DNA of 57,542 nucleotides from Candidatus Anderseniibacteriota bacterium. Lineage in GTDB: Bacteria; Patescibacteriota; Andersenbacteria; UBA10190. The notes below the pieces were generated by a model, which saw nothing but the letters and a program-made list of their open reading frames with translations, did not search any database and was not told the origin of the DNA. Below are positions 11,344 through 52,197 of this stretch, in pieces. The position numbers and the translations under genes are program-made. Positions within the stretch are counted from its first letter, which is position 1, and each line of letters opens with the position of its first letter. The stretch covers positions 155,520-213,061 of the forward strand of contig JAIOOW010000002.1 in the NCBI GenBank assembly GCA_021414205.1, read 5' to 3'.

Positions 11344-11357
11344 AGTCTCTACAGAAT

Positions 11358-11389
11358 AAAAAATCGCACTTAGGTAAGTGCGATTTTTT
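11358..11389. terminator. Bidirectional intrinsic terminator
   Basis: AAAAAATCGCACTT-aggt-AAGTGCGATTTTTT between convergent genes. Confidence 0.85.
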
Positions 11390-11406
11390 ATTATATAAGA
11401 GAGCTA

Positions 11407-12102
11407 TTACGCTAGCCCTAATTCTTTCATCTTAGCTTCAGCTGCATCAAGCTGTGGCTTGTCGTTGACCGGGAACCAGTACGAGCATTCAACGGTCTTA
11501 ATCTTCTTTCCCTTCTCATTAATCAGCTTCATCCATACATCTGGCGTTTCGTATTCTCCGCGCGCTGATGGCGTAATTTCAACTTCAAAAAAACTTTCAT
11601 CCATCACCATCGCTCCGCCCCAAATCAAATCAGATACGAATTCTTGAGGCTTTTCAACTGCCTTTACCACGTACCCATCTTCATCAACTACAAGTACGCC
11701 AAACTGTTCCGGGTTGGGAACGCGATAGGAGTATAGTCCCAAATCTTGCTGCACAAGCTCTTTGAGCGCTGCAGGATCGTAAATATCGTCAGCAACACTC
11801 CCAAACCACTTGCCATGAATTAAATCTTTTGCAGTAAAGAACGCGTGAGCTAATCCTAATTGCTCTTCTTGCTTCACAAATGTGATCGGACGCCCATTGT
11901 GTTCTCCAGATTTAAAATATTCTCGAATTGTAGCTTCGTGAGGACCGCCTACAACGAAAATTAATTCTGTAATTTCTTCAGGAAGCGCTTGGAGCAAATA
12001 TTCTACAACGGGTTTACCGGCAACTGGCAACAATTGCTTCGGGCCTTCGTAGTACTTTGCCATGCGAGTTCCTTTTCCTGCCATTAATATAATTGCTTGC
12101 AT
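11407..12102 (-). CDS. Sugar-phosphate nucleotidyltransferase (RmlA/GlmU N-domain-like)
   Basis: ILMAGKGTRM, PKQLLPVAGKP, QEEQLGLAHA, VEKP, SARGEYE. Confidence 0.9.
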   Translation of the reverse strand: MQAIILMAGKGTRMAKYYEGPKQLLPVAGKPVVEYLLQALPEEITELIFVVGGPHEATIREYFKSGEHNGRPITFVKQEEQLGLAHAFFTAKDLIHGKWFGSVADDIYDPAALKELVQQDLGLYSYRVPNPEQFGVLVVDEDGYVVKAVEKPQEFVSDLIWGGAMVMDESFFEVEITPSARGEYETPDVWMKLINEKGKKIKTVECSYWFPVNDKPQLDAAEAKMKELGLA

Positions 12103-33590: not shown

Positions 33591-34424
33591 ATGATTACAC
33601 TTTTTCAAGCAATTATTTTAGGAGCACTACAAGGAGTTACAGAACTATTTCCAATATCCAGTCTCGGCCACAGCGTTATTCTTCCTGCCTTATTCGGATG
33701 GAACGATTTACAAAACGATCCGTTCTTCTTGAACTTTTTAGTAGGTACGCACTTGGCAACGGCGCTCGTACTCATCGGCTTTTACTGGACGACCTGGATC
33801 GCACTGGCAAAAGGATTTTTCGCATCCATTACTAATCGAGAATTAGTAAAAACAAATGCTGATTCAAAATTGGCCTGGCTCCTTATTGTTGGCACAATCC
33901 CTGCCGGATTACTTGGTCTTATTTTTGAGCATAAATTAAAAACACTGTTTGCCTTACCGAGCTATTCTGCATTGTTTTTACTATTAAACGGTATTGTTTT
34001 ATATATTGCGGAATTGATCCCGAAAAAGACCGGCTCAAATATTCAAAAAATTACATTCACACAAGCGCTCTATGTAGGTATCGCGCAGATCATTGCACTA
34101 TTCCCAGGATTTTCACGAACAGGGGCGACTATCGCAGGAGGCTTGTTTGCAGGACTCACTCATGCTGATTCCGTAAAATATTCATTCTTATTGGCAACGC
34201 CAATTATATTTGCGGCATCAGCACTAAAACTTCCCGGGCTACTACACGGAGCAGGGCAAGTGACTCTCATGCCAACCCTCCTCGGCGCACTATGTGCAGG
34301 TGGTGCGGCGTATTTTTCTATCAAATATTTAACCAAATTCTTTCAAACAAATACGCTCAAGCCGTTTGCAATCTACTGTATGATCGCAGGAGCGCTCGCA
34401 AGCATTATTCTACTTGTTCGGTAA
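33591..34424 (+). CDS. uppP: Undecaprenyl-diphosphatase (BacA)
   Basis: QGVTELFPISSLGH, HLATALVL, ALFPGFSRTGATI, SFLLATP. Confidence 0.96.
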   Translation: MITLFQAIILGALQGVTELFPISSLGHSVILPALFGWNDLQNDPFFLNFLVGTHLATALVLIGFYWTTWIALAKGFFASITNRELVKTNADSKLAWLLIVGTIPAGLLGLIFEHKLKTLFALPSYSALFLLLNGIVLYIAELIPKKTGSNIQKITFTQALYVGIAQIIALFPGFSRTGATIAGGLFAGLTHADSVKYSFLLATPIIFAASALKLPGLLHGAGQVTLMPTLLGALCAGGAAYFSIKYLTKFFQTNTLKPFAIYCMIAGALASIILLVR

Positions 34425-35882
34425 CCCAGAAAATGTATTGAGTATATTTTTAGTCGCACGCTGAATAATCGCGTTTTCTCCAAACCGAGAATGATACTTA
34501 TCAAGCGCGCTCGACCATTGTATAGTCCCCGCATTGAATACATATGCTCCGCTTGGGGCTTGATATATCGTAGCGTTGCACACCTCGGGAACTTTTTTCA
34601 TTGTCAGCACTGGGGACGTGGTTAGTATTTCTAAATTATTAGGCTTTGGAAATTCCGAAAATACTTTATCGCACTCATATCCAACCATGCCAGGGATTGC
34701 CTGGTTTTTCTGAACATTCGTTCCGGAAAAAATCCAATGGCTCGGATTCGTAATTACAAGAGGAAATGCCTTTGGCACCTGAGTTGCAAACATTGCACCG
34801 ATAAGAGTGCTTTCGGGACGATGCACAATCGAGGATCTCCACTCCGTAGTTGCAGCGCTTTCGTCTTCATCAAATTCTGGATCAAGCCTATATGAGTCCT
34901 TATATCCAATCAGTACATTATTCTCAATTCGAATTTGGCGATAGTCTGTATTTGCCGCAAAAATTCCAAGATTTACTCCGGATTTTACTGCAGCTTGATA
35001 AGCATCAAATTGAATCTTCGTCCAATACTCATCGTGCCCAACTATAAGAATTGTTTTGAATTGCTTTAAAATATTCGGATTTGCAACTATATCGCTTGAA
35101 GAAATATAACTCACCGAATACTCATTCTTTTCCAAAAATCGAATCATGGGGTACTCCCATTCAAAAATGTATCCAGCACCATCGTTCTGCAGCAATGGGC
35201 GTTGTAAAGAAATTTGAACTCCGCGGCTGATGCCGAGCTTTTCCGTAAACCCCCTATACAATGAGTTTCCTCCCCAGGCATTGTAGGCTTGATCAGTTAT
35301 ATCCGTATGAACAAGTGCAAGTGAATTTTTTACTGAAATGTCTTTTACCACAAACGGAATATAGCTCTGAAAATTTTCAGCATTTATAAGCTTGACAACA
35401 TACACGCCACTTTGCCAATCCGATGGAATTTGCACAGTAGCTGCAATAGGCCAATTCGGTTGCACTAACCCAGTATCCGGATTCGCAGATGGAATTTGCC
35501 GCATACTCGCACGAATACTTGAAATTGTTGCCATTTTTTTGCCACCAACGCCGTCATACCACCCAAGCCGAAAAATAATCGCTGAGTTATGTTCTGTTTT
35601 TGAGCTGATATGCAAATCAATAGATTGCCCAGCCGTAACGCTTGTTTGCGAGGCGTAGCCTTCAACTTCATGATTATTTGCATGTTGTGTGATGCGCCAC
35701 CCATCGTACCCAGCCTCCACAATATGCACCGGCCATACGTACGGCGCCCACACCTCATGAAGCAAGCCAATAAAAATAATAAGTACTGCAAATACACTTC
35801 CTTTTTTAATCCAAACGCTAATCATCCAAGCAAGCATACGATTTAGCCTACTTTTTGCAAGAAAATACCCCGCAGTGCGCAT
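34410..35882 (-). CDS. N,N-dimethylformamidase beta-subunit-like (DUF6605-type) exported protein
   Basis: IFRLGWYDGVGG, W.SGVY, QAYNAWGGNSLY, VGHDEYW, GYECD, VFNAGTIQW; N-terminal TM. Exact start uncertain. Confidence 0.75.
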   Translation of the reverse strand: MRTAGYFLAKSRLNRMLAWMISVWIKKGSVFAVLIIFIGLLHEVWAPYVWPVHIVEAGYDGWRITQHANNHEVEGYASQTSVTAGQSIDLHISSKTEHNSAIIFRLGWYDGVGGKKMATISSIRASMRQIPSANPDTGLVQPNWPIAATVQIPSDWQSGVYVVKLINAENFQSYIPFVVKDISVKNSLALVHTDITDQAYNAWGGNSLYRGFTEKLGISRGVQISLQRPLLQNDGAGYIFEWEYPMIRFLEKNEYSVSYISSSDIVANPNILKQFKTILIVGHDEYWTKIQFDAYQAAVKSGVNLGIFAANTDYRQIRIENNVLIGYKDSYRLDPEFDEDESAATTEWRSSIVHRPESTLIGAMFATQVPKAFPLVITNPSHWIFSGTNVQKNQAIPGMVGYECDKVFSEFPKPNNLEILTTSPVLTMKKVPEVCNATIYQAPSGAYVFNAGTIQWSSALDKYHSRFGENAIIQRATKNILNTFSGLPNK

Positions 35883-36450: not shown

Positions 36451-37935
36451 TTATTCAATAATCACTTCCTTGTCGTGCATTTCTGCGCTCTTGGATACCT
36501 TAATCCACCACGCAGTAATAGCACCCAAAAGCATCACAAACCCTGCAACATAAAATACTGTTCGATATGCACTCACCTGCGCCTGTAATTCCATCAGCGC
36601 AATTGCTTCATGATATTGGAGCGCGTTTGTGATATTGAGCGTGCTATTGCGTGCGATAGAAAGTAAATTTGATTCAGTAACGTTATGAAGAACTGTTGCG
36701 AATAGTGCCACACCGAATGCTCCTGCGATATTTCGAGCTAGCGCCAAAATAGAAGACGCCACACCAATTTCGGTATCCGGAACAACGGCCGCGATAACTC
36801 CAGTACGCTGCGACATCCCAAACCCGATTCCGAATGCCATCACGGCCATCGGAATAATCAAATCCCATGCGCTCGAACGCACATCAATATCTAAAAACAT
36901 AAATAGTCCGATTGCAGATACAAACGTGCTCCCCATAATAACCATTCGAGCGCTCACTTTCCCGGTTAAGCTCCCACCCAAGGGAGCTGCAACCATGATC
37001 GCAATTGCCATTGGAATAAATAAGTATCCAGTCTGAGTGGCATCGTACCCTAAGAACGTTGAAGCAAATACCGGAATTAAGAAGAAGCTTCCCATCATTG
37101 CCATAAATACGATGAAGTTGTTTATGAGAACGTTCGTAAATACAGGCAATTTAAAAAACTTAAAATCGACAATTGGCTCAACATGAGTCGTTTCAATTCT
37201 GTAAAATATTGCAGAAAAAATAAGTATCGCAATATAGCATGCAACACTCTGCCACGACGTCCATCCCCAATCAATGCCTTTGTCTAATACTAATACCAAC
37301 GAGGCAAGCGCTCCTCCCAACGCAATTGCACCCCACCAATCAAACGAAACCGTTTTCTTCAATGACGTAGATTCCGTGACGAAAATCCATGCCATAAGCA
37401 ATCCAAATAATCCAACAGGCAAATTAATTAAAAATACTGACCGCCATCCGAATGCATCAATGAGCGGCCCCCCTATAAGCGGGCCGAACACTGCAGCAAC
37501 AGCAAACGATGCAGACCAAATACCCAATGCCTGCGCGCGCTCTTTTCCTTTATCAAACGTCACTGCAAGAATTGCCATAGCAGTCGGATAATCAGCTGAT
37601 CCAGCAACTGCTTGAATAATACGGAACACTATCATCGAAGATAAATTCCAAGAAAGCCCTGCTAATACCGACCCGATAATAAATATAATAAAGCCGAGCA
37701 AATATACTTTTTTACGGCCAATCGTATCCCCGAGCTTTCCCCAAATAGGAACGAATACGGCGTTCGCTAAAATATACGCAGTGGCAATCCAACCTGCGCT
37801 CGTTACGGTAATACTGAAATCATCGATAATTTTTGGTAATGCCAAGTTTACGATCGTCTGATCGAGACGCCCTAAAAACGTACCGATAATAACAGTAAAC
37901 AGTACCCACCATTTTAGCGACCCGCCGTTTGCCAT
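36451..37935 (-). CDS. DHA2/EmrB-type MFS efflux transporter
   Basis: LDQTIVNLALP, WIATAYILA, GKLGDTIGRKK (motif A), GPLIGG, WRSVFLINLPVG; about 14 TM. Confidence 0.95.
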   Translation of the reverse strand: MANGGSLKWWVLFTVIIGTFLGRLDQTIVNLALPKIIDDFSITVTSAGWIATAYILANAVFVPIWGKLGDTIGRKKVYLLGFIIFIIGSVLAGLSWNLSSMIVFRIIQAVAGSADYPTAMAILAVTFDKGKERAQALGIWSASFAVAAVFGPLIGGPLIDAFGWRSVFLINLPVGLFGLLMAWIFVTESTSLKKTVSFDWWGAIALGGALASLVLVLDKGIDWGWTSWQSVACYIAILIFSAIFYRIETTHVEPIVDFKFFKLPVFTNVLINNFIVFMAMMGSFFLIPVFASTFLGYDATQTGYLFIPMAIAIMVAAPLGGSLTGKVSARMVIMGSTFVSAIGLFMFLDIDVRSSAWDLIIPMAVMAFGIGFGMSQRTGVIAAVVPDTEIGVASSILALARNIAGAFGVALFATVLHNVTESNLLSIARNSTLNITNALQYHEAIALMELQAQVSAYRTVFYVAGFVMLLGAITAWWIKVSKSAEMHDKEVIIE

Positions 37936-37941
37936 AGCAGA

Positions 37942-38595
37942 TTATTTCTGCACCCAAACCTTTGCAGACATTCCGTTCTTGAGCTCCGGATACGCATTCA
38001 CGTCAAATCGAACCTTCACGTCGAAATCTTGCTGCGCTCGCTTATCGGAAATACTGAATACTACATCCCCGGATCGGGAAGTATTAGCAACCTCATCAAC
38101 AACTCCGGTAAATTTCTTAGATCCGAATGCGTCAACTGTAAAGATAGCCGTTTGCCCAACACGAACATCACTTAGTCCTTTATTTTCCTGCAGCTGCCCG
38201 TCTACGCGCAAATCTTGCGGGTGAATCAGTCTCGCAACAACCGTTCCGCGATTTACGAGCGCCCCAATCGTATCAAGCGTATACACAATCTGCCCGGATG
38301 TTTTCGTTTTTACCAATTCATTACCCACTCGCGCAACAATCGTATTTCCATTTACCACGTCTCCATTTTGAACATATACTTCCTCAAGAGTCCCCGATGT
38401 CTGCGGCGACAATTCAATAGCCGGAGCCGTGATAACAGATTTCTCAATATACACTCTGCTATTTTCAATTCGAATCCAAACAGCAACTCCTGCAATAAGC
38501 GCAATCACGGCTACGATTATTCCAATTCGAACGCTTGGCCTATTCCAAATTCCGATAACGTGATCAGTTCGATTTGTAACTTGTTCTTGTGACAT
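37942..38595 (-). CDS. EmrA/HlyD-family membrane fusion protein (short)
   Basis: TM anchor, biotinyl-like half motifs (VQNGDVV), VRVGQTA.FTVDAF, LKNGMSAKV. Confidence 0.88.
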   Translation of the reverse strand: MSQEQVTNRTDHVIGIWNRPSVRIGIIVAVIALIAGVAVWIRIENSRVYIEKSVITAPAIELSPQTSGTLEEVYVQNGDVVNGNTIVARVGNELVKTKTSGQIVYTLDTIGALVNRGTVVARLIHPQDLRVDGQLQENKGLSDVRVGQTAIFTVDAFGSKKFTGVVDEVANTSRSGDVVFSISDKRAQQDFDVKVRFDVNAYPELKNGMSAKVWVQK

Positions 38596-38600
38596 AGGAG

Positions 38601-39881
38601 TTATTTAGAGCTAAAAGATAGAACAGATTCGCCGGATGATACCCCGGATACAATTTCGTCATATCCGTTTGTTCCGCGAATGCCAACCTGAACTGGTTGC
38701 TGATGAGACGAATGCTCTCCATCTGGAATATTTACAAAGTATGCATCACCATTCGAGAATACTGCATCGCTTGGCACTGCAAGCACATTTTTCTTCTCCG
38801 CTACCGGAATTGCAATATTTGCAGTCATCCCGGAAATAATAGCAGCATCTTGCTTTACAAATTCAAGGGTAATTCCATACGATGCTACTCCCGAATCAAT
38901 CGTTGCGGCAGGATCAATAGATGTAACGGTCGCATCAAATACTTGAGAACCCAGAGCGTCGATCGTAATATTCGCATGCTGCCCTACTTGAATACTTGCA
39001 ATATCTTTTTCGGAAACACTCGCTGTAATTTTAAGAGCACTCGATAGCAATGTTGCGCTTGCCTTAGCCGGGGATGCATATTCTCCAACATGCACATCTA
39101 CAGAACTAAGCACTCCTGAAACAGGGGAACGCAAAATTGTTTTACTAAGCACCGCATTTTGATATCCAAGCTGAGCCTGATTTACAGATAAGTCTCCGGA
39201 AGCATTGATCGTGCTTGATTTAAGCGTTTGAGAAACCTGCGCTGAAGCTACTTGGGATTCCGCGCTCGATTCCGCTTGCTTTACGCTTGCCTGCAATGCA
39301 TGAAGGGTGGTAACTGCTTCATTATAGCTATTCTTTGCCGCAGCAAGCGCTTGTGCCGCTGTAATATATGTCACCGAAGTAGTATCAATATCTCCGTCGT
39401 TGCTCACATCCGTAAAAATATCCTGCATCTTATTCATATACGTGCGAGTATCCAGCACTTTTTGCGTGGCATTTGCAATACTTGCCGCATCTGCCTTCTT
39501 CAGCTGAGCTAACGCCGTTTGCGCATTTACAAGCCCCTGTTGCGCGGTCTCTTGATCGCCGATCACCACAGCGTTAGCACTTGCACGCTGCATCGCAATA
39601 TCTGAGGCATCAAGCGTTGCAAGTACTTGACCGGCCTTTACCGTATCCCCTTTTTGCACAAGGACTGTTTTTACAATTCCGCTTGTTCCGAACGCAAGTT
39701 CATGAGTATCAACAGCTTCCACTTGCCCTGTCGTAGATACTTCTTGCACAACATCGTGGTTGCCAATCGTAACAGCGTGCATGGCAGGAGCCGGCGTCAT
39801 GACGACGCGTACGCCAAACCAAGCAGCCACGACAAGAACCACAATCGCGATACTTCCTATAATGATGTTATTTTTGCTCAT
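38601..39881 (-). CDS. MacA-like efflux adaptor (MFP) subunit
   Basis: VQKGDTVKAGQVLATLD, coiled-coil hairpin, LRSPVSGV, VSEKDIASIQVGQ, GMTANI, LAVPSDAV. Confidence 0.9.
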   Translation of the reverse strand: MSKNNIIIGSIAIVVLVVAAWFGVRVVMTPAPAMHAVTIGNHDVVQEVSTTGQVEAVDTHELAFGTSGIVKTVLVQKGDTVKAGQVLATLDASDIAMQRASANAVVIGDQETAQQGLVNAQTALAQLKKADAASIANATQKVLDTRTYMNKMQDIFTDVSNDGDIDTTSVTYITAAQALAAAKNSYNEAVTTLHALQASVKQAESSAESQVASAQVSQTLKSSTINASGDLSVNQAQLGYQNAVLSKTILRSPVSGVLSSVDVHVGEYASPAKASATLLSSALKITASVSEKDIASIQVGQHANITIDALGSQVFDATVTSIDPAATIDSGVASYGITLEFVKQDAAIISGMTANIAIPVAEKKNVLAVPSDAVFSNGDAYFVNIPDGEHSSHQQPVQVGIRGTNGYDEIVSGVSSGESVLSFSSK

Positions 39882-40281
39882 ATAATTTTTCCAAAATAGT
39901 GATAAAGTTTTCTGTCTCTTTTTTATTTAAAACCTTCAATACGTCTTTTAAATGCTTCGACATTATTTGATACGACTTCTTTAATTCCGCCTGACCTTTT
40001 TTCGTAATCTTGAGCCGTACTATTCTGCGGTCACTTGTATCCGCAACCCTGTCCAAATACTCACCTTTCGAAAGATGGTCTATTAAGGCTGTTGCGGAAG
40101 GAGGTGCTACGCACAAGTACCCGGAGACATCTTTCATCAGGGGGTTTTTATGTTCATGGACGAATTTGAGAGTCTGCAATTGCCCGGGAGAAAGTGTAAT
40201 TCCCTCTGCGGACTTCATATACTCCTTCGTCTGCTTCGCGACGCCGAATATAAGTGTTATTAAATGGTCTAATTGTTCCAT
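39868..40281 (-). CDS. MarR-family transcriptional regulator
   Basis: LS..Q...L, SATALIDHL, GYL.R...DRRIV.L.IT.KG winged-HTH pattern; heads the efflux operon. Confidence 0.93.
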   Translation of the reverse strand: MEQLDHLITLIFGVAKQTKEYMKSAEGITLSPGQLQTLKFVHEHKNPLMKDVSGYLCVAPPSATALIDHLSKGEYLDRVADTSDRRIVRLKITKKGQAELKKSYQIMSKHLKDVLKVLNKKETENFITILEKLYEQK

Positions 40282-42061: not shown

Positions 42062-43288
42062 ATGCGTATTGTTTGGAAAAAGGTGACTAGCATCGTCGTG
42101 TTAGCTAGTATGTTCTTCGCGGTTGCTTTGCAATCTGCGCAGGCTGTTACATGCACTGATGCCGAAAGCTGTAATGCAGCTATTAAAGTTCTCCAAGCAA
42201 AACTGGCCCAGGGCCAGCAAAAAATTAACGAGAAACAACAAACTGCCTACAGCTACAAACAGGCTTTAGCAGATTTAGGGAGCAAGCTCCAAACAACCCA
42301 AACTCAAATCAAAGACACGCAAGGCAAGATAGCAGATACTTCAACTCAGATTGACCAGGTGTCAGGATACATAGATTCCGAACAGCAGCAGCTTACCCAA
42401 CTCCAAGCACAGCTCGAATCTGAAATCGTGCAGTTGTATACAGAATCGCAAACACCTCAGCTTGCCATCCTTCTTTCCGGTTCTTCGTTTTCCGAAGTAA
42501 CTAACGACATGGACTACTTAAAGCAATTACAAGACAACATCCAGAAACGAGTGAATGATACACGCGCACTACAAGCGGACTTGCAACAGCAGAAAGATAA
42601 TCTCCAAAAACAAAAAGATTCTTTAAGTAATCTCCACGAGAACTTAACGGGGCACCAAAAAGATTTGTCGTATCAAACGAATCAAACGAATTATTTACTA
42701 TCCGCAACCAAAGCGCAGATTCAATCATATGCAGCAGACCAAGCAGTCATTAAGCAGCAAATTGCAGAAACGCAACGAAAGTTACAGAACTTAGTAGCTC
42801 AAGCCCATTGGGGAAATGATATCGTATCTGCTCCCGCAGAATCCTGGTCGTACAATCAATTAAATTATTACGACACACTCGGATACAGTCCGTACACCGT
42901 GCATGATTATGGATGCCTTATCACTTCGCTTGCCATGGTTGCCACAAAAAAGGGATACCATATCACCCCTGCGCAAATTGCAAATCATCCAAGCTGGTTT
43001 ACTCGAGGCGGATATGCAAACACAAACGCAGTTGCATCAGGTGTCGGCCTTTCTATTCAAGAAAAAGCTGGGGTTAATTGGGCGACCGTCGACGATGAGC
43101 TCAAGGCAGGACACCCAGTTATCGTCAGCATCTACCTACCTCAAGTAGGCGCAATTAATTCCGACGGATCATCCCACTTTATCGTCATACAAGGAAAGGT
43201 TGGCAACTCATACCAAATGCAGGACCCGCTCGGACAAAATAGAAGCTATGGATTAAATTATGTTCGCTCAATGATTATTTTACGATAA
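42062..43288 (+). CDS. Secreted coiled-coil (CwlO/PcsB-like) protein with a C-terminal C39-like cysteine peptidase domain
   Basis: Signal peptide, Q/K/L heptads, then Q..GCLITSLAM (Cys), SHFIVI (His), QDP (Asp). Confidence 0.8.
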   Translation: MRIVWKKVTSIVVLASMFFAVALQSAQAVTCTDAESCNAAIKVLQAKLAQGQQKINEKQQTAYSYKQALADLGSKLQTTQTQIKDTQGKIADTSTQIDQVSGYIDSEQQQLTQLQAQLESEIVQLYTESQTPQLAILLSGSSFSEVTNDMDYLKQLQDNIQKRVNDTRALQADLQQQKDNLQKQKDSLSNLHENLTGHQKDLSYQTNQTNYLLSATKAQIQSYAADQAVIKQQIAETQRKLQNLVAQAHWGNDIVSAPAESWSYNQLNYYDTLGYSPYTVHDYGCLITSLAMVATKKGYHITPAQIANHPSWFTRGGYANTNAVASGVGLSIQEKAGVNWATVDDELKAGHPVIVSIYLPQVGAINSDGSSHFIVIQGKVGNSYQMQDPLGQNRSYGLNYVRSMIILR

Positions 43289-43298
43289 TACTATTTTT

Positions 43299-43643
43299 AT
43301 GAATATCTTTTTAAAATGGATTGTAAATGCACTCGCCGTCATTCTTACAGCATATGTATTACCCGGCGTTGCAGTAACCGGTCTTGGCACAGCGCTCTTG
43401 GTTGCGCTCGTGCTTGGTTTATTAAATATTTTAATTAAACCATTCCTAATCCTCCTTACTCTGCCGATAACAATCCTAACTCTCGGATTATTTACGTTTA
43501 TTATTAATGCGGTGTTAGTGATGCTCACCAGCAGGATCGTTCCCGGGTTTTTTGTTCAGGATTTTTGGTACGGGTTACTATTTAGCTTAGTATTCTCTAT
43601 TGTTACATCAGCATTCTCAGCACTAGAGCAGCAAACAAACTAA
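43299..43643 (+). CDS. YvlD/4-TMS phage-holin-family membrane protein
   Basis: ALVLGLLNILIKPFLILLTLPITILTLGLFTFIINA signature. Confidence 0.9.
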   Translation: MNIFLKWIVNALAVILTAYVLPGVAVTGLGTALLVALVLGLLNILIKPFLILLTLPITILTLGLFTFIINAVLVMLTSRIVPGFFVQDFWYGLLFSLVFSIVTSAFSALEQQTN

Positions 43644-45088: not shown

Positions 45089-45334
45089 CTACTTCTTCGG
45101 AATCGGACCCTTCCAAATCAAGTCCTCTGGAATTCGGAAGTCGAACGGGACTTCGATCACGAGCGGAACATCCGGTCCATCGATGCAATTCACGCCCGGA
45201 TCCAGAACGACCACTTTGGTTTTCGGAAAGATTCGATGCTTCTGGTCTCGAAAATCCTTACTCGAAAATCCAGCTTGAACCATGCCCGCCATCGCGATCC
45301 ACGCCAATACAGGTACCAACACAAACTTTCGCAT
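45089..45334 (-). CDS. Small secreted hypothetical protein
   Basis: MRKFVLVPVLAWIAMAGMVQA signal peptide; AGGGG SD. Confidence 0.6.
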   Translation of the reverse strand: MRKFVLVPVLAWIAMAGMVQAGFSSKDFRDQKHRIFPKTKVVVLDPGVNCIDGPDVPLVIEVPFDFRIPEDLIWKGPIPKK

Positions 45335-45458
45335 CTTCGAAACCCCTTGATGAAACGTGCAAACCACCACCGCAATTTCTGGATTATAATGCAAAATACA
45401 TAGTTGTCAATACTAGGAGTGACTTACAATACATACCCATACCTGTAATACTAGATAT

Positions 45459-46154
45459 ATGAAAACACCTCTTGTAAGCGTTCTTGTTGCTGCGTATAAC
45501 TCCGAAGATTTTATAGAAGACGCCCTACAAAGCGTGTGGGACCAAACATACAAGAATTACGAAATTATTGTGGTGAATGACGGATCAACTGATACAACAG
45601 CATCAAAACTGAACCAATGGAAACATAGAATAACTATTATAGAGAAAGAAAATGGCGGCATTGCGAGTGCTCGCAATGCAGGACTCGCCGCAACAAAAGG
45701 CAATTTTATCGCAATTCTTGATGCTGATGATGTATGGCTGCCAACAAAACTTTCCGAACAAATGGAATATTTTCGGAGCCACCCCGCTGTAAGCATTGTT
45801 TTTTCTTTAGCTCAAAACGTATTGCACAAAGATCTTGTGCATAGGAATAATATATCGCCAAAGCCATTCCCAATCATAGCGGCTCATATACCCGGAAACT
45901 GCATGGTGAGAAAAAATATATTCAATCAGATCGGATATTTTAACGAATCCATAATTTTAGGAGAGTTTGCAGAATGGTACGGCAAAGCATTGAACGCAAA
46001 TATCAAGATGGGCTGCGTTGATTCCCTGCTACTCCTTCGGCGCATTCACGGAAATAACATTGGAATCAAGGAAAAGAAGCGCTTTAACGATTACCTCCAT
46101 ATTTTAAAAAGAAAGATCGATGCCCAAAAAGCGCCTGCAGAATCGTCCGACTAA
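45459..46154 (+). CDS. GT2 family glycosyltransferase
   Basis: VSVLVAAYN, VNDGSTD, NGGIASARNAG, LDADD.W.P.KL. Confidence 0.95.
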   Translation: MKTPLVSVLVAAYNSEDFIEDALQSVWDQTYKNYEIIVVNDGSTDTTASKLNQWKHRITIIEKENGGIASARNAGLAATKGNFIAILDADDVWLPTKLSEQMEYFRSHPAVSIVFSLAQNVLHKDLVHRNNISPKPFPIIAAHIPGNCMVRKNIFNQIGYFNESIILGEFAEWYGKALNANIKMGCVDSLLLLRRIHGNNIGIKEKKRFNDYLHILKRKIDAQKAPAESSD

Positions 46155-47264
46155 TTGAGAAAATCTCAGCGCCACAATCGCAGGAACTGCCATAAGCGAC
46201 GGAGTTTGGCATAAAAATTTCAAGAATCTGCCAACTTGCTTCATACTGTTCTCGATAGTATATGGCCGGGATAGCGATTTCACATACCGCCACCAATACA
46301 GCTCAATTGCCGGAATAATTCGAGTATATGTATCTTTCGATTCCAAATACGTCATTCGCCGATCAGGAAGCGAAACGGGGGTGTTTTGCAACTGATCAAG
46401 AACCCATTCGGGAATATCAACAAACGATTGATCGCTTAAGTATCGCAATGCAACACCGACCGATAGCGTCGTACGCATGCGTTGAGAAAGATCCACGACA
46501 AAACGCCAATCTACTTGCCCGGAACGAATAATAAATACCGCATCAAGTATCCACTTTAACTGAATACCATCTTTTCCATTCCAACCCAGTGCATGAGCGC
46601 ACACATGGACTACATGGTAACTAGAAGAAAGCGTCATCGCCTTGCGATTCTGAATACCGATATGTTGAGTACCCTCGGCAAGCATCGCCCAATCGTCATC
46701 TTGTAAATACCCGTGCAATAGATGGCAATGCATATCCAAAATTCCCGACGAAGTATACAAACTCATCTCATGAAAAAAGTCTGACTGAAACAATTCGATA
46801 GCAGTATGCGTGCGATAGGCCGGATAGCGCTTGCATATCAGACCGATTGCTTCTGAGAAGCGATGCGCTGGAATCATCATATCTACATCATCGATTGAGC
46901 GCGCACCGATATCATTTCCATAATATAAAAAAATAAACGCCGCCCCCTTAAGCAGCATAAAAGGAATACTATTACTATCGAGCACATCCATTACTTTTTC
47001 TGCCTCATTAAGCAGTAAAGAATTTTTAAGCCACGAAGCCTGATACGCATTTTTACATACCGTAATCCATGCATCTTCCGGAAGAAGTCGCAGGAGCTTC
47101 CTATATGCAAACGGGAATAGCCGTAGGCTTCCATGGTCTAAATCCTCATAGTTGCCAGCAACAGCCTTCCACTGATTCCACAACGCAGAAAACTGATCAT
47201 CCGGAGCAAGCAGTGCCCGAATAAGCAGCCCCTGTGTCGCACTCGGAAATACAAATATGCTCAT
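46104..47264 (-). CDS. Nucleotidyltransferase (NTP_transf_5-like, as found in lasso-peptide clusters)
   Basis: LLKGAA...YY.......RSIDDVDMMIP, DMH, HVCAH, W..D. Confidence 0.85.
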   Translation of the reverse strand: MSIFVFPSATQGLLIRALLAPDDQFSALWNQWKAVAGNYEDLDHGSLRLFPFAYRKLLRLLPEDAWITVCKNAYQASWLKNSLLLNEAEKVMDVLDSNSIPFMLLKGAAFIFLYYGNDIGARSIDDVDMMIPAHRFSEAIGLICKRYPAYRTHTAIELFQSDFFHEMSLYTSSGILDMHCHLLHGYLQDDDWAMLAEGTQHIGIQNRKAMTLSSSYHVVHVCAHALGWNGKDGIQLKWILDAVFIIRSGQVDWRFVVDLSQRMRTTLSVGVALRYLSDQSFVDIPEWVLDQLQNTPVSLPDRRMTYLESKDTYTRIIPAIELYWWRYVKSLSRPYTIENSMKQVGRFLKFLCQTPSLMAVPAIVALRFSQLVGRFCRRFLGIDLSF

Positions 47265-48856
47265 AGAGTGATTATGCGCCCGTCAGAAATTTCATACCGT
47301 GCATCAGCGATCGCAATCAAGCTCTGGTCATGAGTAATGCAAATGATTGTTGTTGTGGGTAATAAAGACTTCAGCCGAGCAAATAATACATTGCGATATT
47401 CCTCATCTAAATGATTTGTCGCCTCATCTAGGAAAAGAATCTTTGGTCTTCGCTCCAATGCGCGAGAAATCATCAGGCGCTGCTTCTCACCTCCCGAAAG
47501 AGACGCCGTGTCTCTCGTACCATCTATAAAAAAATCGCTGCGACCCAACACAGAGACTTGCCCCCCGCCTAATCCGTACTGCTCGTTCTCTTTTACGCTC
47601 GCATTCAAAAAAATCGCTTCTTGAGAAACCACTCCTATCTGCCGGCGATACGATGAAATATCAATAGTTCTCAAGCTTGCACCGTCAATAAAAATATCTC
47701 CCGCATCAGGCACCAACAATCCGAGTATTGCGAAAAGAAGCGTCGTTTTCCCTGCTCCATTCTTCCCCTCAACAACAGATAATTCTCCTGCCTTAAATAC
47801 CGCGTTCGCATTCCGTAGGATCGTATCACCTCCAACAGAAAGAGATATATTTCGTAAAGAAATTTCTCCCTTGACCTCGTGGTGCACCGTACCGGAATAT
47901 GGCGTTTCTTGGGAAATAGCGAGCACCTGCTCAATGCGAGATAATGCGTCATGCAACATAACTACATGAGGCCACCCCATAAACAGCGTTGCAATCTGCG
48001 CTCGCAACAGAGAAAACCCTACGAAAAACGAAACAACCTGACTGATAGAAAGCTCTCCTCGGGAACTTAAAAAGAAGCCAAAGCCCAGCAAAACAATACC
48101 GAATACTGCCCCTACCCCTTCTTGAAACAATTGCAATATCGTCTGCTGGTACGCGAGCTTGCCTCCGGACTGCCTGACATTACCTACAAGATCTTCATAC
48201 GCGCTATCCTCTGCCCGCTCAGCTGTTTGCATCTTTACCAGCTCCCATGCGCGAATCGTAAATCCGACGCGTTCTTCAAATGAAACCATGGCTCGGCGGA
48301 AACGCTCCTGCAATGTCGACACTTTATTTCTCGAATACACTAAAGCTATAAGACCGAGCGGGAGCACGCCGCAAGAAATAAGAAATAAGACCGGGGAAAG
48401 CACAAAGAGCGCACCCAGCAATACAACCATCGATATGATCGCCGGCAATACTTGGCTTAATCCAATAGTTAATGCGAGATCCAATCGATACGTATCATTC
48501 ACAATCACGTCCTTGAGCCCTTCCGCATATTGCGCCCATGCGGATCGATGATGACTTTTCACAATTGTACGCACTGCATCGTGTTGCACCTTTTGAACCC
48601 CCTCTTTTACTACCTTAACTATCCCAAACCGGCTCATTGCGGAAAGGGCGATATCGACACTGCTCACCAAAAGCAGTGCTACGAGCGCACTTGCGATGCT
48701 ATCCCACCGAGAGTTAGGAACGCGATCAATAATGAATCGCAATATCAGCGGTATCGGTAACACCATAAATCCATGAATAACGGCGAGCAAGACATACCAT
48801 GCAAGCCGAGCTTTCTGCACAGAAAAATAACGAGACAATGTTTTTACAGTATTCAT
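47261..48856 (-). CDS. ABC exporter, fused permease/ATPase, without a C39 peptidase domain
   Basis: N-terminal TM domain; GKNGAGKTT, LSGGEKQR, LFLDEATNHLD, ITH. Confidence 0.95.
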   Translation of the reverse strand: MNTVKTLSRYFSVQKARLAWYVLLAVIHGFMVLPIPLILRFIIDRVPNSRWDSIASALVALLLVSSVDIALSAMSRFGIVKVVKEGVQKVQHDAVRTIVKSHHRSAWAQYAEGLKDVIVNDTYRLDLALTIGLSQVLPAIISMVVLLGALFVLSPVLFLISCGVLPLGLIALVYSRNKVSTLQERFRRAMVSFEERVGFTIRAWELVKMQTAERAEDSAYEDLVGNVRQSGGKLAYQQTILQLFQEGVGAVFGIVLLGFGFFLSSRGELSISQVVSFFVGFSLLRAQIATLFMGWPHVVMLHDALSRIEQVLAISQETPYSGTVHHEVKGEISLRNISLSVGGDTILRNANAVFKAGELSVVEGKNGAGKTTLLFAILGLLVPDAGDIFIDGASLRTIDISSYRRQIGVVSQEAIFLNASVKENEQYGLGGGQVSVLGRSDFFIDGTRDTASLSGGEKQRLMISRALERRPKILFLDEATNHLDEEYRNVLFARLKSLLPTTTIICITHDQSLIAIADARYEISDGRIITL

Positions 48857-49533
48857 TTCGCTTTTTTAACAATCAAGGAAAGAAGTTCCCTATTATAGTT
48901 TGCGCGCTCCGATAGGCTCAAAATATGGGATGCATTTTTTTGATGCACTCTTTTTTTCCATAGCAATTGTTCCACCGTGCCAATCTCATACCCAGCCTTC
49001 AGAACGCGCGCTACCCAATCAGTATCGCTGGCGATACTATATTGCGGATCAAACGCTCCTACGTATGAGAATAATTGCTTTCGTATCAGCCAGGCGGAAG
49101 GGCTCAGGTTTCGATGCATAACATCCAAAAAACCGTCGCGAACCCATCCTGGCTTTTGAACACCATTTTCTAAAAACCCTTCGCATAATGGCACACACAT
49201 GTGAATATCTGGATGCTTTTCCAGATATTCAACTTGCGCAGAAATTTTCCTAGGGAGAAATATATCATCATTATCTAAAAAAGAAATATACTCTCCGCGT
49301 GCGGCAGCAAAGCCCTTATTCCTCGCCGATGCAACGCCGCTATTTTTTTGATCAATGATGCGAATATATTCTGCATATGTTCTCAATATATCAGCCGACG
49401 CATCTGTAGACCCATCATTAACCGCAATAATCTCGAGGGGAGCATAGTCTTGCGCAAGAATGCTTTCTATCGCCTGCTCTAAAAAATGCTCAGCATTGTA
49501 TACCGGAATAACAACGGAAACGAGCGGGTTCAT
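48853..49533 (-). CDS. GT2 family glycosyltransferase
   Basis: VSVVIPVYN, VNDGSTD, NSGVASARNKG, FLDNDD. Confidence 0.95.
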   Translation of the reverse strand: MNPLVSVVIPVYNAEHFLEQAIESILAQDYAPLEIIAVNDGSTDASADILRTYAEYIRIIDQKNSGVASARNKGFAAARGEYISFLDNDDIFLPRKISAQVEYLEKHPDIHMCVPLCEGFLENGVQKPGWVRDGFLDVMHRNLSPSAWLIRKQLFSYVGAFDPQYSIASDTDWVARVLKAGYEIGTVEQLLWKKRVHQKNASHILSLSERANYNRELLSLIVKKAK

Positions 49534-50231
49534 AGCGCGCTATTTTTTAAAGATAAAATCTCGCGCGCTCCTCGGCGCTTGAGCGATGCACCCAGCACGC
49601 GAAGCAACGACGTATCACCAGATTTTAGCGCATGTGTTGTGTTCGTATCATGGATGCGATAAAAGCTTACAGCATCAGGAATCTTTGCAATTACCGCCCC
49701 TACTTCTACCGCCCTAAAGAACCAATCGACATCCTCATGGAGCAGATATTTCTCGTTCAGCATTCCGATTTCTTCAAATGCGCTTGCGCGAATTACGGCA
49801 GCCCCCAAAGACGGCAACAACTCCCCCTTGCCTAAAAAGTTTTCTCGAGAAGGCGCGCCGCCCGACACAAATCGCTGCACATGACCCATTGCAATCTGAA
49901 GGGCGGGATTTTTTTCATATTCAGAGAGCAGCAGCGCCACATGATGTTCCGTCCAAATATCATCAGCATCCAAAAAGGCCACATACTCTCCGCGCGCTCT
50001 GCGCAATCCCGCATTTCGAGCTGATGCCGGACCTTTATTTTCCTGCGTGATATATACAATGTTTTCTATCCATGATTCAAGCGCCTGCCTAATATCGTCG
50101 GTAGAGCCGTCATTAATAACAATAATTTCATACGGCAACTTCCCCATTGCAATTTCTATGCTGGCAAGAGCATCGCCAATATATTGAGAGGCATTATACA
50201 CAGGAACAACAACACTTATCATCGGGGCCAT
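49530..50231 (-). CDS. GT2 family glycosyltransferase
   Basis: ISVVVPVYN, INDGSTD, NKGPASARNAG, FLDADD, EDVDW. Confidence 0.95.
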   Translation of the reverse strand: MAPMISVVVPVYNASQYIGDALASIEIAMGKLPYEIIVINDGSTDDIRQALESWIENIVYITQENKGPASARNAGLRRARGEYVAFLDADDIWTEHHVALLLSEYEKNPALQIAMGHVQRFVSGGAPSRENFLGKGELLPSLGAAVIRASAFEEIGMLNEKYLLHEDVDWFFRAVEVGAVIAKIPDAVSFYRIHDTNTTHALKSGDTSLLRVLGASLKRRGAREILSLKNSAL

Positions 50232-50247
50232 ATAGTAAAATAGTATC

Positions 50248-51243
50248 TTATAATTCTTCAATAAACACAGATAGCTTCTCACTTATTTCTTTCTCATCTT
50301 CGCTTAATTGCAACGAGAATGATGGCACACGCTGTACGAGCTCAGCCAATACCGCAAACGAATCATTGTGCGTATCTTCCGGCAGTAGTTGAAATATCGT
50401 ACTGGGTGCTAATGCGAGCAGAGCATGCGCAGAATGTATCCTGCGCCAAGATGTTTCTTGAGCATGCGCAATAACGGGCAACACTATTGCACGCACTTCC
50501 AACTGTTGTGCGATTTTTCCGCTATATGCTTCGTGTAAAAACATCACTTCTTTTTCCCCGATAACTTCCAAGTCATGATGTTTAATTTTTGCGGAACTGT
50601 ACAAGCTGATCGCAGTTGGGACTGGGTCCATTTTTAATAACACATAATCATCGCTCGCATACACAAGATCATCTTGATGCACAACAGCAAGAGCCGTGCT
50701 CGTTTTTCCGCTCCCCCCTTTGCCCACAAGCACTATTCCTTTTTTATCTTTTCCGATGCTTGCCCCGTGTATCAAACTCAAGCCATGGCGCTGAAAAAAC
50801 CAATGGAAAATGATGCGAAACGGCACAGCGACTTCATACCAAGGAATGCGCGTATCATCTTCTACCCAAAATACCGCCCGCTTGTTCATACCATCAAAAA
50901 AAGAAAGGGTCGGCATACTTTCATTCACCCCCGGATTTACCATACACATCATTTGCTCTGTTTGGAGTCGTTGAACTTGGTCTCCAAATGAATGCTTGGG
51001 CCAATCAAAAAATTCTATTCGAGCACCGGAATGTAGCTCTATACGCAAATCGACCGCACCTTCGCTAGGCGCTGCAACATGCGCCAACGCTCTCGTCATA
51101 TTGATAAGAAAATCCTCAGATCCTGACACAACCTCTATACGCAAACCATCCACTTCAAATAGCCGCGAATGCAGGCGCGATAGCTGTTTATAAAAAAATT
51201 CTTGCTCCAATCTCTCAATAAACTCGTCCGAGTCAGCACTCAT
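50248..51243 (-). CDS. HPr-kinase-related P-loop kinase (lasso-peptide-kinase-like)
   Basis: LIHGAS, VGKGGSGKTST (Walker A), YASDD, AL..LAPSTIFQL. Confidence 0.82.
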   Translation of the reverse strand: MSADSDEFIERLEQEFFYKQLSRLHSRLFEVDGLRIEVVSGSEDFLINMTRALAHVAAPSEGAVDLRIELHSGARIEFFDWPKHSFGDQVQRLQTEQMMCMVNPGVNESMPTLSFFDGMNKRAVFWVEDDTRIPWYEVAVPFRIIFHWFFQRHGLSLIHGASIGKDKKGIVLVGKGGSGKTSTALAVVHQDDLVYASDDYVLLKMDPVPTAISLYSSAKIKHHDLEVIGEKEVMFLHEAYSGKIAQQLEVRAIVLPVIAHAQETSWRRIHSAHALLALAPSTIFQLLPEDTHNDSFAVLAELVQRVPSFSLQLSEDEKEISEKLSVFIEEL

Positions 51244-51252
51244 ATGCGAGCA

Positions 51253-51690
51253 TCACTTCACTTCCTGCATCGGCCAACTACCCTCACCCACATCATGAAT
51301 TGGATCAAGTAATAGCAACTCTCTCATGTCTTCATGCTTTTTAAGTGCTGGCTCTTCGTAATCTGTATCCGTTTCCGCAGATTGCTGCATAATTGCAGAC
51401 GCAGCATTATCGCCATTACTTGCGCGAATAAGCCCTTCTTGTACCAACCGTACAATAAAAGCACCCACATCCCGCTCAGCACGCTTTTCATCAATACTGT
51501 ATCGCCTACGTATTTCAGAATATATTATCTGCTCACTTAGCCCTTGCTCCAGATATTCCCAAATAACTGCCCCCGTACGATTCGCATGGTAATAACATCC
51601 GCTTTCCAAATGAATAGCAACAAGCTCCCCATCTATCACTTCGGCTACCACGCTTGGCTTACACACAGCATATATTGCGGAATCTGACAT
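51253..51690 (-). CDS. PqqD/RRE-domain protein with a C-terminal leader-plus-core-like tail
   Basis: VVAEVIDGELVAIHLESGCYYHANRTGAVIWEYL...FIVRLVQEGLI (PqqD fold) followed by YEEPALKKHEDMRELLLLDPIHDVGEGSWP. Confidence 0.88.
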   Translation of the reverse strand: MSDSAIYAVCKPSVVAEVIDGELVAIHLESGCYYHANRTGAVIWEYLEQGLSEQIIYSEIRRRYSIDEKRAERDVGAFIVRLVQEGLIRASNGDNAASAIMQQSAETDTDYEEPALKKHEDMRELLLLDPIHDVGEGSWPMQEVK

Positions 51691-51772
51691 AGTAAGAAAA
51701 AGCATACAAGACCCAGGTTCTGCAGACAAGCAATCCAGCGACCCCTCCGCTCTCGCAATAATACAGTATGTA

Positions 51773-52003
51773 TTACTTTAAATGACTGGCAAGAAATCCA
51801 AACGCGCTACCCAGCAATGGCAAACTCGTAAGCTTATTGAGCACAACTACAACAATCGTTACAATTATGCCCGCACCAATAGCAGTACCAAAACCAGTAG
51901 CAATTCCCCGGACAAACGTAGCATGCCACTGCATACTTTTATTCAGCTTGCGCACTTGGTTCGTAAGGGCGTCTAATTCTTTTGTTCGAGATGAATCATT
52001 CAT
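51773..52003 (-). CDS. DUF5665-like small membrane protein
   Basis: FVRGIATGFGTAIGAGII...L..LPLLG pattern. Confidence 0.7.
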   Translation of the reverse strand: MNDSSRTKELDALTNQVRKLNKSMQWHATFVRGIATGFGTAIGAGIIVTIVVVVLNKLTSLPLLGSAFGFLASHLK

Positions 52004-52197
52004 ATAGTCAATTTTCTGCGTATTTCGTTCAACGCCTCAGCATCCGATTTTCCCTCCCCTTTTACGGCTCGATCATCTTTTGTAAATAGCCAAAACGTAT
52101 ATAGCTCTCCATTCAAGCGATAATCATTATGAACGGCTACCATCCACCCCGCTGCGCGAATGTCATCGGGAACACTAGCATTAACCGCAGTCTTCAT
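52000..52197 (-). CDS. Small hypothetical protein
   Basis: 65-aa ORF with a 4-nt overlap into the next gene and a protein-like composition. Confidence 0.65.
   Translation of the reverse strand: MKTAVNASVPDDIRAAGWMVAVHNDYRLNGELYTFWLFTKDDRAVKGEGKSDAEALNEIRRKLTI

Follow-up and report, generated by a model that had tools for sequence, protein, structure and literature searches.

A widespread cyclase-free gene cassette built around an RRE protein with a fused precursor-like tail

Background

Pathways that depend on a RiPP recognition element (RRE; RiPP, peptide made by ribosomes and modified after translation) are normally spotted by their small, variable precursor gene. The subject of this report is a seven-gene cassette in a 57,542-nt stretch (the window) of contig JAIOOW010000002.1 of Candidatus Anderseniibacteriota bacterium, from a freshwater metagenome; its closest known system is that of the linear polyphosphorylated peptides (LPPs) of Bacillota, described for the Paenibacillus alginolyticus cluster lppAKBSDN (Popov et al., Nat Commun 2026; PMC13381572). 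In this cluster lppA carries the leader YxxPxVLxHQxIxFET|xxS, and is accompanied by an HprK-like kinase (LppK), a discrete RRE (LppB), a SipW-like leader peptidase (LppS), an exporter (LppD) and an NTP transferase (LppN) (PMC13381572). LppK accepts only Ser, and Ser3 is polyphosphorylated; LppB is insoluble without the leader, and LppN was inactive in the heterologous host (PMC13381572). The part of the leader past YxxP has been proposed by the same authors to contact the modifying enzymes (PMC13381572). In pseudomycoidin the HprK-like PsmK phosphorylates the terminal Ser of the precursor, and PsmN, a transferase of the NTP_transf_5 family, is needed to add one or two hexoses to the phosphate (PMC6993621). 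LppK, like PsmK, polyphosphorylates one Ser of an RRE-bound precursor (PMC13381572, PMC6993621). LPP clusters are often embedded in capsule loci, and so are paeninodin clusters (PMC13381572).

A first inspection of the window, made from the letters alone (hereafter the sequence-only reading), had recognized a PqqD/RRE protein, a kinase, three family-2 glycosyltransferases (GT2s), an ABC exporter and a nucleotidyltransferase-fold protein (NTase). All seven genes are found in the map of open reading frames (ORFs), with Pfam and NCBIfam matches, and the parts list is indeed shared with the tailoring enzymes of paeninodin and pseudomycoidin clusters (PMC6993621, PMC13381572). We hold it about an even chance (probability near 0.5) that the cassette is a conserved, cyclase-free, RRE-dependent tailoring system, in which the precursor is fused to the RRE protein and the tail of this protein is decorated. 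No description of an RRE-precursor fusion, or of a GT2-containing cassette of this kind, was found in the searchable literature, the coverage of which excludes subscription journals.

Results

A conserved tail fused to the RRE domain

PqqD homologs of the cassette share one design. In the 84 sequences aligned, a domain of about 90 aa precedes a linker, variable both in length and in composition, and a conserved C-terminal segment comes last. The consensus derived from 81 tails is [FY]xxPxLxK[YFH]x-D-M-[QE]-x-L-L-L-L-D-P-[IV]-H-[ED]-V-[DG]-x-x-G-W-P, column counts showing the D, P, H and final P to be invariant. The tail of the window protein reads Y111-EEPALKKHEDMRELLLLDPIHDVGEGSWP-140, the invariant positions corresponding to Asp129-Pro130 (codons at 51301-51306) and His132; the segment located after the docking motif is near-invariant over 25 residues. 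A hidden Markov model (HMM) of the tail was run on six-frame translations of 87 related loci and of the window. One match per locus was obtained, always at the C-terminus of PqqD, and the model matches once in the 57.5-kb window. As the RRE protein carries both a leader-like and a core-like segment in its fused tail, its choice for mass analysis in the sequence-only reading was apt.

A tail variant was observed in L055 (12997-13428) and in the proteins P0154 and P0155, where YxxPxL...LALDP is kept and IHEVDxxGWP is replaced by PxPxL. No NTase lies within 10 kb in L055, a single locus which hints at a link between the distal tail and the NTase.

Predicted docking of the tail

On three computational grounds, the leader-type motif is predicted to bind its own RRE as leaders canonically do: the RRE is most similar to leader-bound B1 proteins, the AlphaFold2 (AF2) model is confident at the motif, and tail and RRE covary. 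The RRE profile matches TbiB1 at 1.8e-19, PbaB1 at 8.8e-15 and LppB at 4e-9 in the PDB. The AF2 model, in which three strands precede three helices, is superimposable on TbiB1 with a template modelling (TM) score of 0.90 in Foldseek, and TfuB1 leader complexes were matched too. In the monomer model the docking motif, residues 111-120, forms a strand at 116-119 and stands out by its predicted local distance difference test (pLDDT) score of 95 between low-confidence segments, values dropping to 50-65 in residues 121-145. The first six residues of the tail match [Y/W]xxPx[L/V/I/F/A], the motif through which the leaders of lasso peptides and LPPs are bound by discrete RREs (PMC13381572). A B1-type RRE binding a [Y/W]xxPxL leader, a feature of lasso clusters, is predicted computationally for the cassette as well.

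In the crystal structure of the LppB-LppA complex (9x8z) the hydroxyl of the leader Tyr is hydrogen-bonded to Asp70 of LppB (PMC13381572). The equivalent column, occupied by Asp74 in the window protein, shares more mutual information with the tail aromatic than any other RRE column. Tail Tyr is paired with Asp/Glu at this column in 12 of 15 sequences, tail Phe with Ala/Gly/Ser in 54 of 64, and with Asp/Glu in only 4 of 64 (Fisher's exact p=1.4e-8, without phylogenetic correction). Several unrelated phyla contribute Tyr-Asp/Glu pairs.

Free or split precursors

A second, free precursor near the cassette was sought with the tail HMM, which gave no further copy in the 87 loci and the window. Regular-expression searches for a free precursor in the odd loci yielded only a 37-aa ORF in L087, a single-cell genome labelled Margulisiibacteriota. 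There, in the stretch 7020-7412, a tail-less PqqD ends at TAA; the stop is followed by AAGGAG-N8-ATG and by the ORF, MDKNKTVKKIEEKEEYTKPTIDKHDPINSAAIGTPPS, which carries YTKPTIDKHDPIN and has in AAGGAG its own ribosome-binding site. The RRE of L087 has Asp at the covarying column. L087 may represent an ordinary RRE plus a small, discrete precursor.

Tail-profile searches in a collection of 5.8 billion proteins retrieved only proteins of 29-99 aa, P0299-P0418 included. Three cases on long contigs were inspected. In L186, the clearest, the PqqD, NTase and ABC genes around the short tail-only protein are each split; L185 resembles it, and L187 shows no recognisable cassette genes. These three were rejected as standalone precursors, and are best read as frameshift fragments resulting from assembly errors. 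Since the cases inspected are fragment-like, this search provides neither a fused-to-free ratio nor evidence for standalone precursors.

Organization and spread of the cassette

The genes and the segments of the PqqD protein are listed in Table 1. According to the sequence-only reading, the minus-strand genes are coupled by 4-nt overlaps or by gaps shorter than 20 nt. This holds for the GT2a/GT2b, GT2b/ABC and ABC/NTase junctions, which overlap by 4 nt, and for the 9-nt gap between PqqD and kinase, but not for the kinase-GT2a gap, 25 nt long. GT2c and NTase are convergent, and their 3' ends overlap by 51 nt. The mechanically called GT2a ORF extends to 50282, and an alternative upstream start of PqqD at 51705 would give a protein of 150 aa.

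Table 1. Coordinates of cassette genes and of PqqD segments in the window
Feature	Position	Strand	Description
GT2c	45459-46154	+	231 aa; PF00535 at 2e-34; soluble family-2 glycosyltransferase; convergent with NTase
NTP_transf_5 nucleotidyltransferase-fold protein (NTase)	46104-47264	-	386 aa; PF14907 at 8e-23, 81.7 bits
ABC half-transporter exporter	47261-48856	-	531 aa; ABC_membrane + ABC_tran
GT2b, soluble family-2 glycosyltransferase	48853-49533	-	226 aa; PF00535 at 6e-36
GT2a, soluble family-2 glycosyltransferase	49530-50222	-	230 aa; PF00535 at 6e-32
HPrK-like P-loop kinase	50248-51243	-	331 aa; HPrK/PEPCK fold
PqqD/RRE protein	51253-51690	-	145 aa; PF05402 at 56.7 bits
RRE (winged-helix) domain of PqqD, residues 1-90	51421-51690	-	AF2 pLDDT 93-97
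PqqD linker, residues 91-110, variable, low-complexity	51361-51420	-	AF2 pLDDT about 65
PqqD leader-like docking motif YEEPALKKHE, residues 111-120	51331-51360	-	AF2 pLDDT 95
PqqD conserved core-like segment DMRELLLLDPIHDVGEGSWPMQEVK, residues 121-145	51256-51330	-	Tail column statistics

The same PqqD-kinase-GT2-(GT2)-ABC-NTase-(GT2) arrangement is found, with unrelated flanks, around kinase homologs 86, 58, 45, 42 and 34% identical to the window protein (L002-L007). A scan of one genome per species identified 80 loci with the cassette gene set, labelled Cyanobacteria, Acidobacteriota, Planctomycetota, Bacteroidota, Chloroflexota, Nitrospirota, Actinomycetota, Patescibacteria and others. Complete flanks, i.e. 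at least 3 kb upstream and at least 7 kb downstream, were available for 51 loci from more than 12 phyla. PqqD adjoins the kinase in 51/51 of these, and NTase is present in 48/51; at least one GT2 was found in 50/51, at least two in 42/51, at least three in 30/51, and the ABC exporter in 22/51. An exhaustive profile search at E<=1e-30 assigned 2,778 clusters of 50% identity to the kinase family. The conservation of synteny that the sequence-only reading had asked for is thus borne out. As the gene set recurs with different flanks in the homolog loci and in 80 species-representative genomes, the arrangement is well past chance, and the cassette is a real conserved module.

The best matches of the leucyl-tRNA synthetase (LeuRS) encoded in the window, 62-63% identical, are in metagenome-assembled genomes of Patescibacteria, so that the earlier label of the host as resembling members of the candidate phyla radiation (CPR) is reasonable. 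The cassette is pan-bacterial and no CPR speciality, and the suggestion that it would be unexpected in such a minimal organism is for this reason weak. The part in surface decoration or host interaction proposed along with it is a conjecture.

Kinase fusions were noticed among the profile hits, of the GT2-kinase, kinase-GT2, epimerase-kinase and PqqD-kinase types. In P0157, P0204, P0233, P0283, P0196, P0174 and P0229 the kinase is joined to a GT2 (at either end), an NAD-epimerase or a PqqD domain; the tail of the PqqD-kinase fusion is degenerate (YHSPEIHRY...). Clustering of neighbouring ORFs, checked by Pfam, revealed accessory families present in at least three related loci, namely a GT2/GT4/TPR fusion, a TPR-repeat protein, NAD-epimerase, GlcNAc 2-epimerase, sulfotransferase, FkbM methyltransferase, polysaccharide deacetylase and GT4. 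By Pfam, these recurrent genes are assigned to carbohydrate-tailoring enzymes. No priming phosphoglycosyltransferase, flippase or polymerase family is recurrent among the clustered neighbouring ORFs.

Three GT2s, together with MsbA and PglK among the sub-threshold matches of the exporter, and a UDP-glucose dehydrogenase with a sugar nucleotidyltransferase elsewhere in the window, could also denote an ordinary cell-surface polysaccharide or glycolipid locus, in which the exporter would be an MsbA/PglK-like flippase, and PqqD, kinase and NTase incidental. This is very unlikely: PqqD-kinase adjacency and NTase presence persist across phyla with changing flanks at the frequencies given above, fusions tie the kinase both to GT2 and to PqqD, and the 4-nt overlaps, indicative of translational coupling, make one operon.

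Kinase, transferases and exporter

The kinase belongs to the HPr kinase/phosphorylase superfamily, featuring a P-loop and a DD motif on an HPrK/PEPCK (phosphoenolpyruvate carboxykinase) fold. It scores 17.6 bits against Pfam Hpr_kinase_C, under the 33.3 cut-off, and hence fails the threshold of bona fide HprK/P; in the precomputed annotation of the source contig it is PF27840 ScmC. Walker A (GKGGSGKT, at about 50701-50724) and the DDY motif (at about 50644-50652) are both intact. G174-K180 (GKGGSGK[ST]) and D198, D199, Y200 are invariant across 27 homologs, and align in PDB profile hits with the P-loop and the ADD motif of HPrK/P. The AF2 model (pLDDT 87.7) matches in Foldseek ATP-dependent PEP carboxykinases over both domains (TMq 0.56-0.58), as well as the C-terminal domain of HPrK/P.

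GT2a, GT2b and GT2c are paralogs, 34-35% identical to one another and devoid of hydrophobic segments; their a-b-c order is kept in many phyla. GT2a comes first after the kinase in most related loci, and counterparts of GT2b in other phyla are 37-42% identical to it. GT2c is retained in L002, L003, L005 and L006; in most other phyla its equivalent is co-directional, a third GT2 preceding the NTase.

The NTase is 23% identical to LppN (E 4e-6), the exporter 27% identical to LppD. Five to six transmembrane segments emerge from the hydrophobicity profile of the exporter, which has neither a C39 nor another peptidase domain. Its best NCBIfam matches, all below cut-offs, are to the NHLP-bacteriocin, HepA, type I secretion and MsbA classes, and PglK is likewise found among the sub-threshold ones.

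Comparison with lasso, LPP and other systems

Neither an Asn_synthase-like cyclase nor a transglutaminase-type B2 protease was found by Pfam among the window ORFs scanned, which comprised nearly all non-nested ORFs of at least 120 aa, the remainder being covered by the precomputed Pfam annotation of the contig. This agrees with the sequence-only reading. A SipW-like type I signal peptidase of the LppS type was not found in the operon or within 10 kb. Cyclase, transglutaminase and peptidase families are not recurrent among the clustered neighbouring ORFs of the 87 related loci, nor are lasso cyclases, B2 proteases or signal-peptidase-like proteases within about 10 kb in the 51 complete loci. 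Because cyclase and B2 protease are missing and synteny is conserved among homologs, the cassette is a separate, non-lasso pathway, as had been supposed. The further proposal of a pathway for a linear phospho-glyco-peptide stands as to its separate and cyclase-free nature, but a cyclase-free linear pathway with these parts was already published in 2026 for the LPPs of Bacillota.

The P. alginolyticus locus (L168) was compared directly with the window genes by BLASTP and profiles. Both systems are cyclase-free and RRE-dependent, combine a kinase of the HprK-like superfamily with an MsbA-like exporter and a transferase of the NTP_transf_5 family, and are found near glycosyltransferase genes. The YxxPx[V/L] motif of the LPP leader sits in the RRE groove. 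His at +8 from YxxP is shared (YxxPxVLxH in LPPs, YEEPALKKH in the clade of the window), and the invariant Asp129 of the tail, at +18, takes the position of the phospho-Ser S3 of LPPs. This positional match is an observation, to which a mechanistic meaning may tentatively be given.

In contrast to LPP clusters, the window cassette and the related loci lack a SipW-like leader peptidase. The precursor-like tail is fused to the RRE, whereas the LPP precursor is a separate 35-200-aa gene; the core is nearly invariant, and has Asp for the acceptor Ser, whereas the LPP core is hypervariable. The kinase has two domains and 331 aa, LppK 261 aa. The kinase family profile hits LppK at E 1.5e-4 (14 bits, P-loop only) and the lasso kinase PbaK at 3e-9, and BLASTP finds neither. 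By scores, the RRE appears to fall outside the LppB clade and closer to TbiB1 and PbaB1 (BLASTP, LppB 8e-4 vs. PbaB1 2e-10). Two to three GT2s are integral to the operon, and the cassette occurs in many phyla, whereas LPPs are reported to be restricted to Bacillota.

Paeninodin and pseudomycoidin clusters have in common with the cassette a B1-type RRE, an HprK-like precursor kinase, an NTP_transf_5 protein (PsmN) and an ABC exporter (PMC6993621), and differ because the cassette lacks an Asn-synthetase-like cyclase, a B2 protease, a separate precursor and a C-terminal Ser acceptor. Lasso-type B1 complexes (TbiB1 5v1v/5v1u, TfuB1 6jx3, PbaB1 9x90, LppB 9x8z) show the same fold (TM 0.87-0.91) and the same [Y/W/F]xxPx[L/V/I] motif, and the contact of the Tyr hydroxyl with Asp seen in structures is mirrored by covariation in the cassette; the peptide is however a separate chain in the complexes, while the cassette tail is tethered by a linker the length of which differs among relatives (20 residues in the window protein). 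HPrK-like P-loop proteins and PqqD-family chaperones also meet, outside lasso clusters, in the HPr-rel-A system (TIGR04352/TIGR04353) and as ScmC/ScmD of SynChlorMet. Window proteins score far under the HPr-rel-A cut-offs (31.4 vs. 200 bits for TIGR04352, 19.5 vs. 35 for TIGR04353), and radical SAM partners are not conserved with the cassette. The cassette lacks several defining features of lasso and LPP clusters, yet plainly uses the same toolkit.

The genome was inspected over 57.5 kb, and the cassette might supply only the tailoring enzymes of a lasso or LPP pathway whose separate precursor and cyclase or leader peptidase are encoded elsewhere in the genome. The overlap in parts with paeninodin and pseudomycoidin tailoring (PMC6993621) and the lasso-B1 type of the RRE speak for such a split. 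It is nevertheless highly improbable, as the proteins in question were not found among the window ORFs scanned and are not recurrent within about 10 kb in the 51 complete loci, the RRE groove is predicted to be filled by its own tail, the tail has neither Thr at -2 nor a ring-forming layout, and the relationship of kinase and NTase to the Paenibacillus enzymes is remote.

Surroundings of the cassette

Among the remaining window genes Pfam shows housekeeping functions, including TopA, ParAB, LeuRS, IleRS, ArgRS, TGT, MgsA and UppP. A secreted coiled-coil Peptidase_C39_2 protein (408 aa) is followed after 10 nt by a membrane protein of the Phage_holin_4_2 family (114 aa; pair at 42062-43643, plus strand). 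The pair looks like an autolysin with its holin, and is kept in L002. The Peptidase_C39_2 protein (42062-43288) was rejected as the protease absent from the cassette, because of its signal peptide, coiled coil and holin-like neighbour, and because it is not linked to the cassette.

The stretch 45089-45410 (minus strand) contains an 81-aa ORF with a signal-peptide-like N-terminus and without Pfam hits, in a place where no gene is called in L002, and, about 49 nt upstream of its ATG, a perfect sigma-70 consensus, TTGACA-16-TATAAT (45410-45383). Immediately upstream, and on the strand of PqqD, come a 65-aa ORF and the gene of a DUF5665 membrane protein of 76 aa, with a mutual overlap of 4 nt (51773-52197, minus strand). 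Both were considered as cassette members. They are conserved only in the 86% relative L002 and, being absent from L003, L005 and L006, probably lie outside the cassette.

A DMFA2_C gene (N,N-dimethylformamidase beta-like; 34410-35882, minus strand) lies about 10 kb from the cassette. The same family is found at L003:5603-7090, about 2.5 kb upstream of the cassette, and hence near the cassette in both lineages. An efflux-like operon at 36451-40281 (minus strand) consists of MarR, an MFS transporter and two neighbouring genes of the HlyD family, 426 and 217 aa long, which may be parts of a single split gene. A UDP-glucose/GDP-mannose dehydrogenase and a sugar-1-phosphate nucleotidyltransferase (10027-12102), encoded some 34 kb away from the cassette, could supply sugar donors. 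Anti-phage defence was considered and rejected, PADLOC matches being to generic ABC-ATPases only.

Discussion

In the favoured reading, a fused precursor decorated on its own tail, docking of the motif would bring either the conserved segment next to it or the linker nearby to the HPrK/PEPCK-fold kinase for phosphorylation. By analogy with PsmN, the NTP_transf_5 enzyme may then attach an initial sugar, or some other group linked through phosphate, and the three paralogous GT2s may extend a short, defined glycan. The ABC exporter, where present, as in the window, may export the protein once modified, or a fragment set free from it. The best candidate acceptors in the tail are the invariant Asp-Pro and His, the alternative being Ser/Thr residues of the linker, in which case the tail would act as a follower-type recognition sequence.

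Several points weigh against this reading. Column statistics of the 81 tails revealed no conserved Ser/Thr: the sole column rich in these residues is T39 S18 E7 D7, and is Glu in the window protein, and in L003/L004 the Tyr of the docking motif, which is buried, is the only hydroxyl residue of the tail. Since LppK accepted only Ser, the precedent chemistry cannot apply unchanged, and the idea of the sequence-only reading, a phospho-Ser later carrying sugar, cannot be transferred directly. The kinase is only remotely related to LppK and PbaK, no protease is encoded in the cassette, and the exporter is absent from 57% of the complete loci. The support for docking, AF2 and covariation, is computational in kind, and shared ancestry is not discounted in the covariation statistic. 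L087, a single case, could be a nonsense-split gene, the stop codon being in frame with PqqD. Finally, a core near-invariant across phyla is unusual for a RiPP, and equally fits a docking peptide for partner enzymes.

The last point leads to a different role for the tail, that of a built-in pseudo-leader or docking peptide. Kinase, NTase and GT2s would then be assembled or activated by the RRE-tail protein, acting as their scaffold or regulatory subunit, and their substrate would be another molecule: a lipid-linked sugar, a glycan, or a peptide or protein with its gene elsewhere. We regard this as possible, though doubtful. Extreme conservation of the tail across phyla without a conserved hydroxyl acceptor would be explained, and low pLDDT of residues 121-145 in the monomer is expected if they fold on a partner. 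GT2-kinase and epimerase-kinase fusions, along with accessory genes for carbohydrate enzymes, point to sugar chemistry; LPP and paeninodin clusters reside in capsule loci, and LppB is soluble only with bound leader (PMC13381572). An intramolecular leader would, on the other hand, compete with a substrate supplied in trans, the loci lack a recurrent priming phosphoglycosyltransferase, flippase or polymerase family, all three GT2s are without membrane segments, and L087 looks like an ordinary RRE with a small precursor.

A more speculative and improbable version of tail modification makes the invariant Asp-Pro the reactive centre of a novel modification, or of a protease-free cleavage, via an acyl phosphate made by the kinase. 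The PEPCK/HPrK-fold kinase would activate the Asp carboxylate as acyl phosphate, the next Pro blocking succinimide formation; Asp would then receive a conserved glycan from NTase and the three GT2s, or these enzymes would trigger cleavage between Asp and Pro without a protease. If true, a new protein modification, or a universal small glycopeptide (PIHEVDxxGWP...), would be produced in thousands of bacterial lineages by a self-sufficient fusion of RRE and precursor.

Both the recognition motif and the near-invariant "core" sit inside the RRE protein itself, and genome mining centred on precursors would for this reason miss the whole family. Because LppN is inactive without partners (PMC13381572), the LPP study left open how NTP_transf_5 enzymes and HprK-like RiPP kinases work alongside glycosyltransferases; the seven-gene system could show the roles of both. 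The family is large, about 2,800 kinase clusters at 50% identity being spread over many phyla, and so conserved a core points to a product with a physiological role, for instance as a signal, a cofactor or a component of the envelope, more than to an antibiotic peculiar to a strain.

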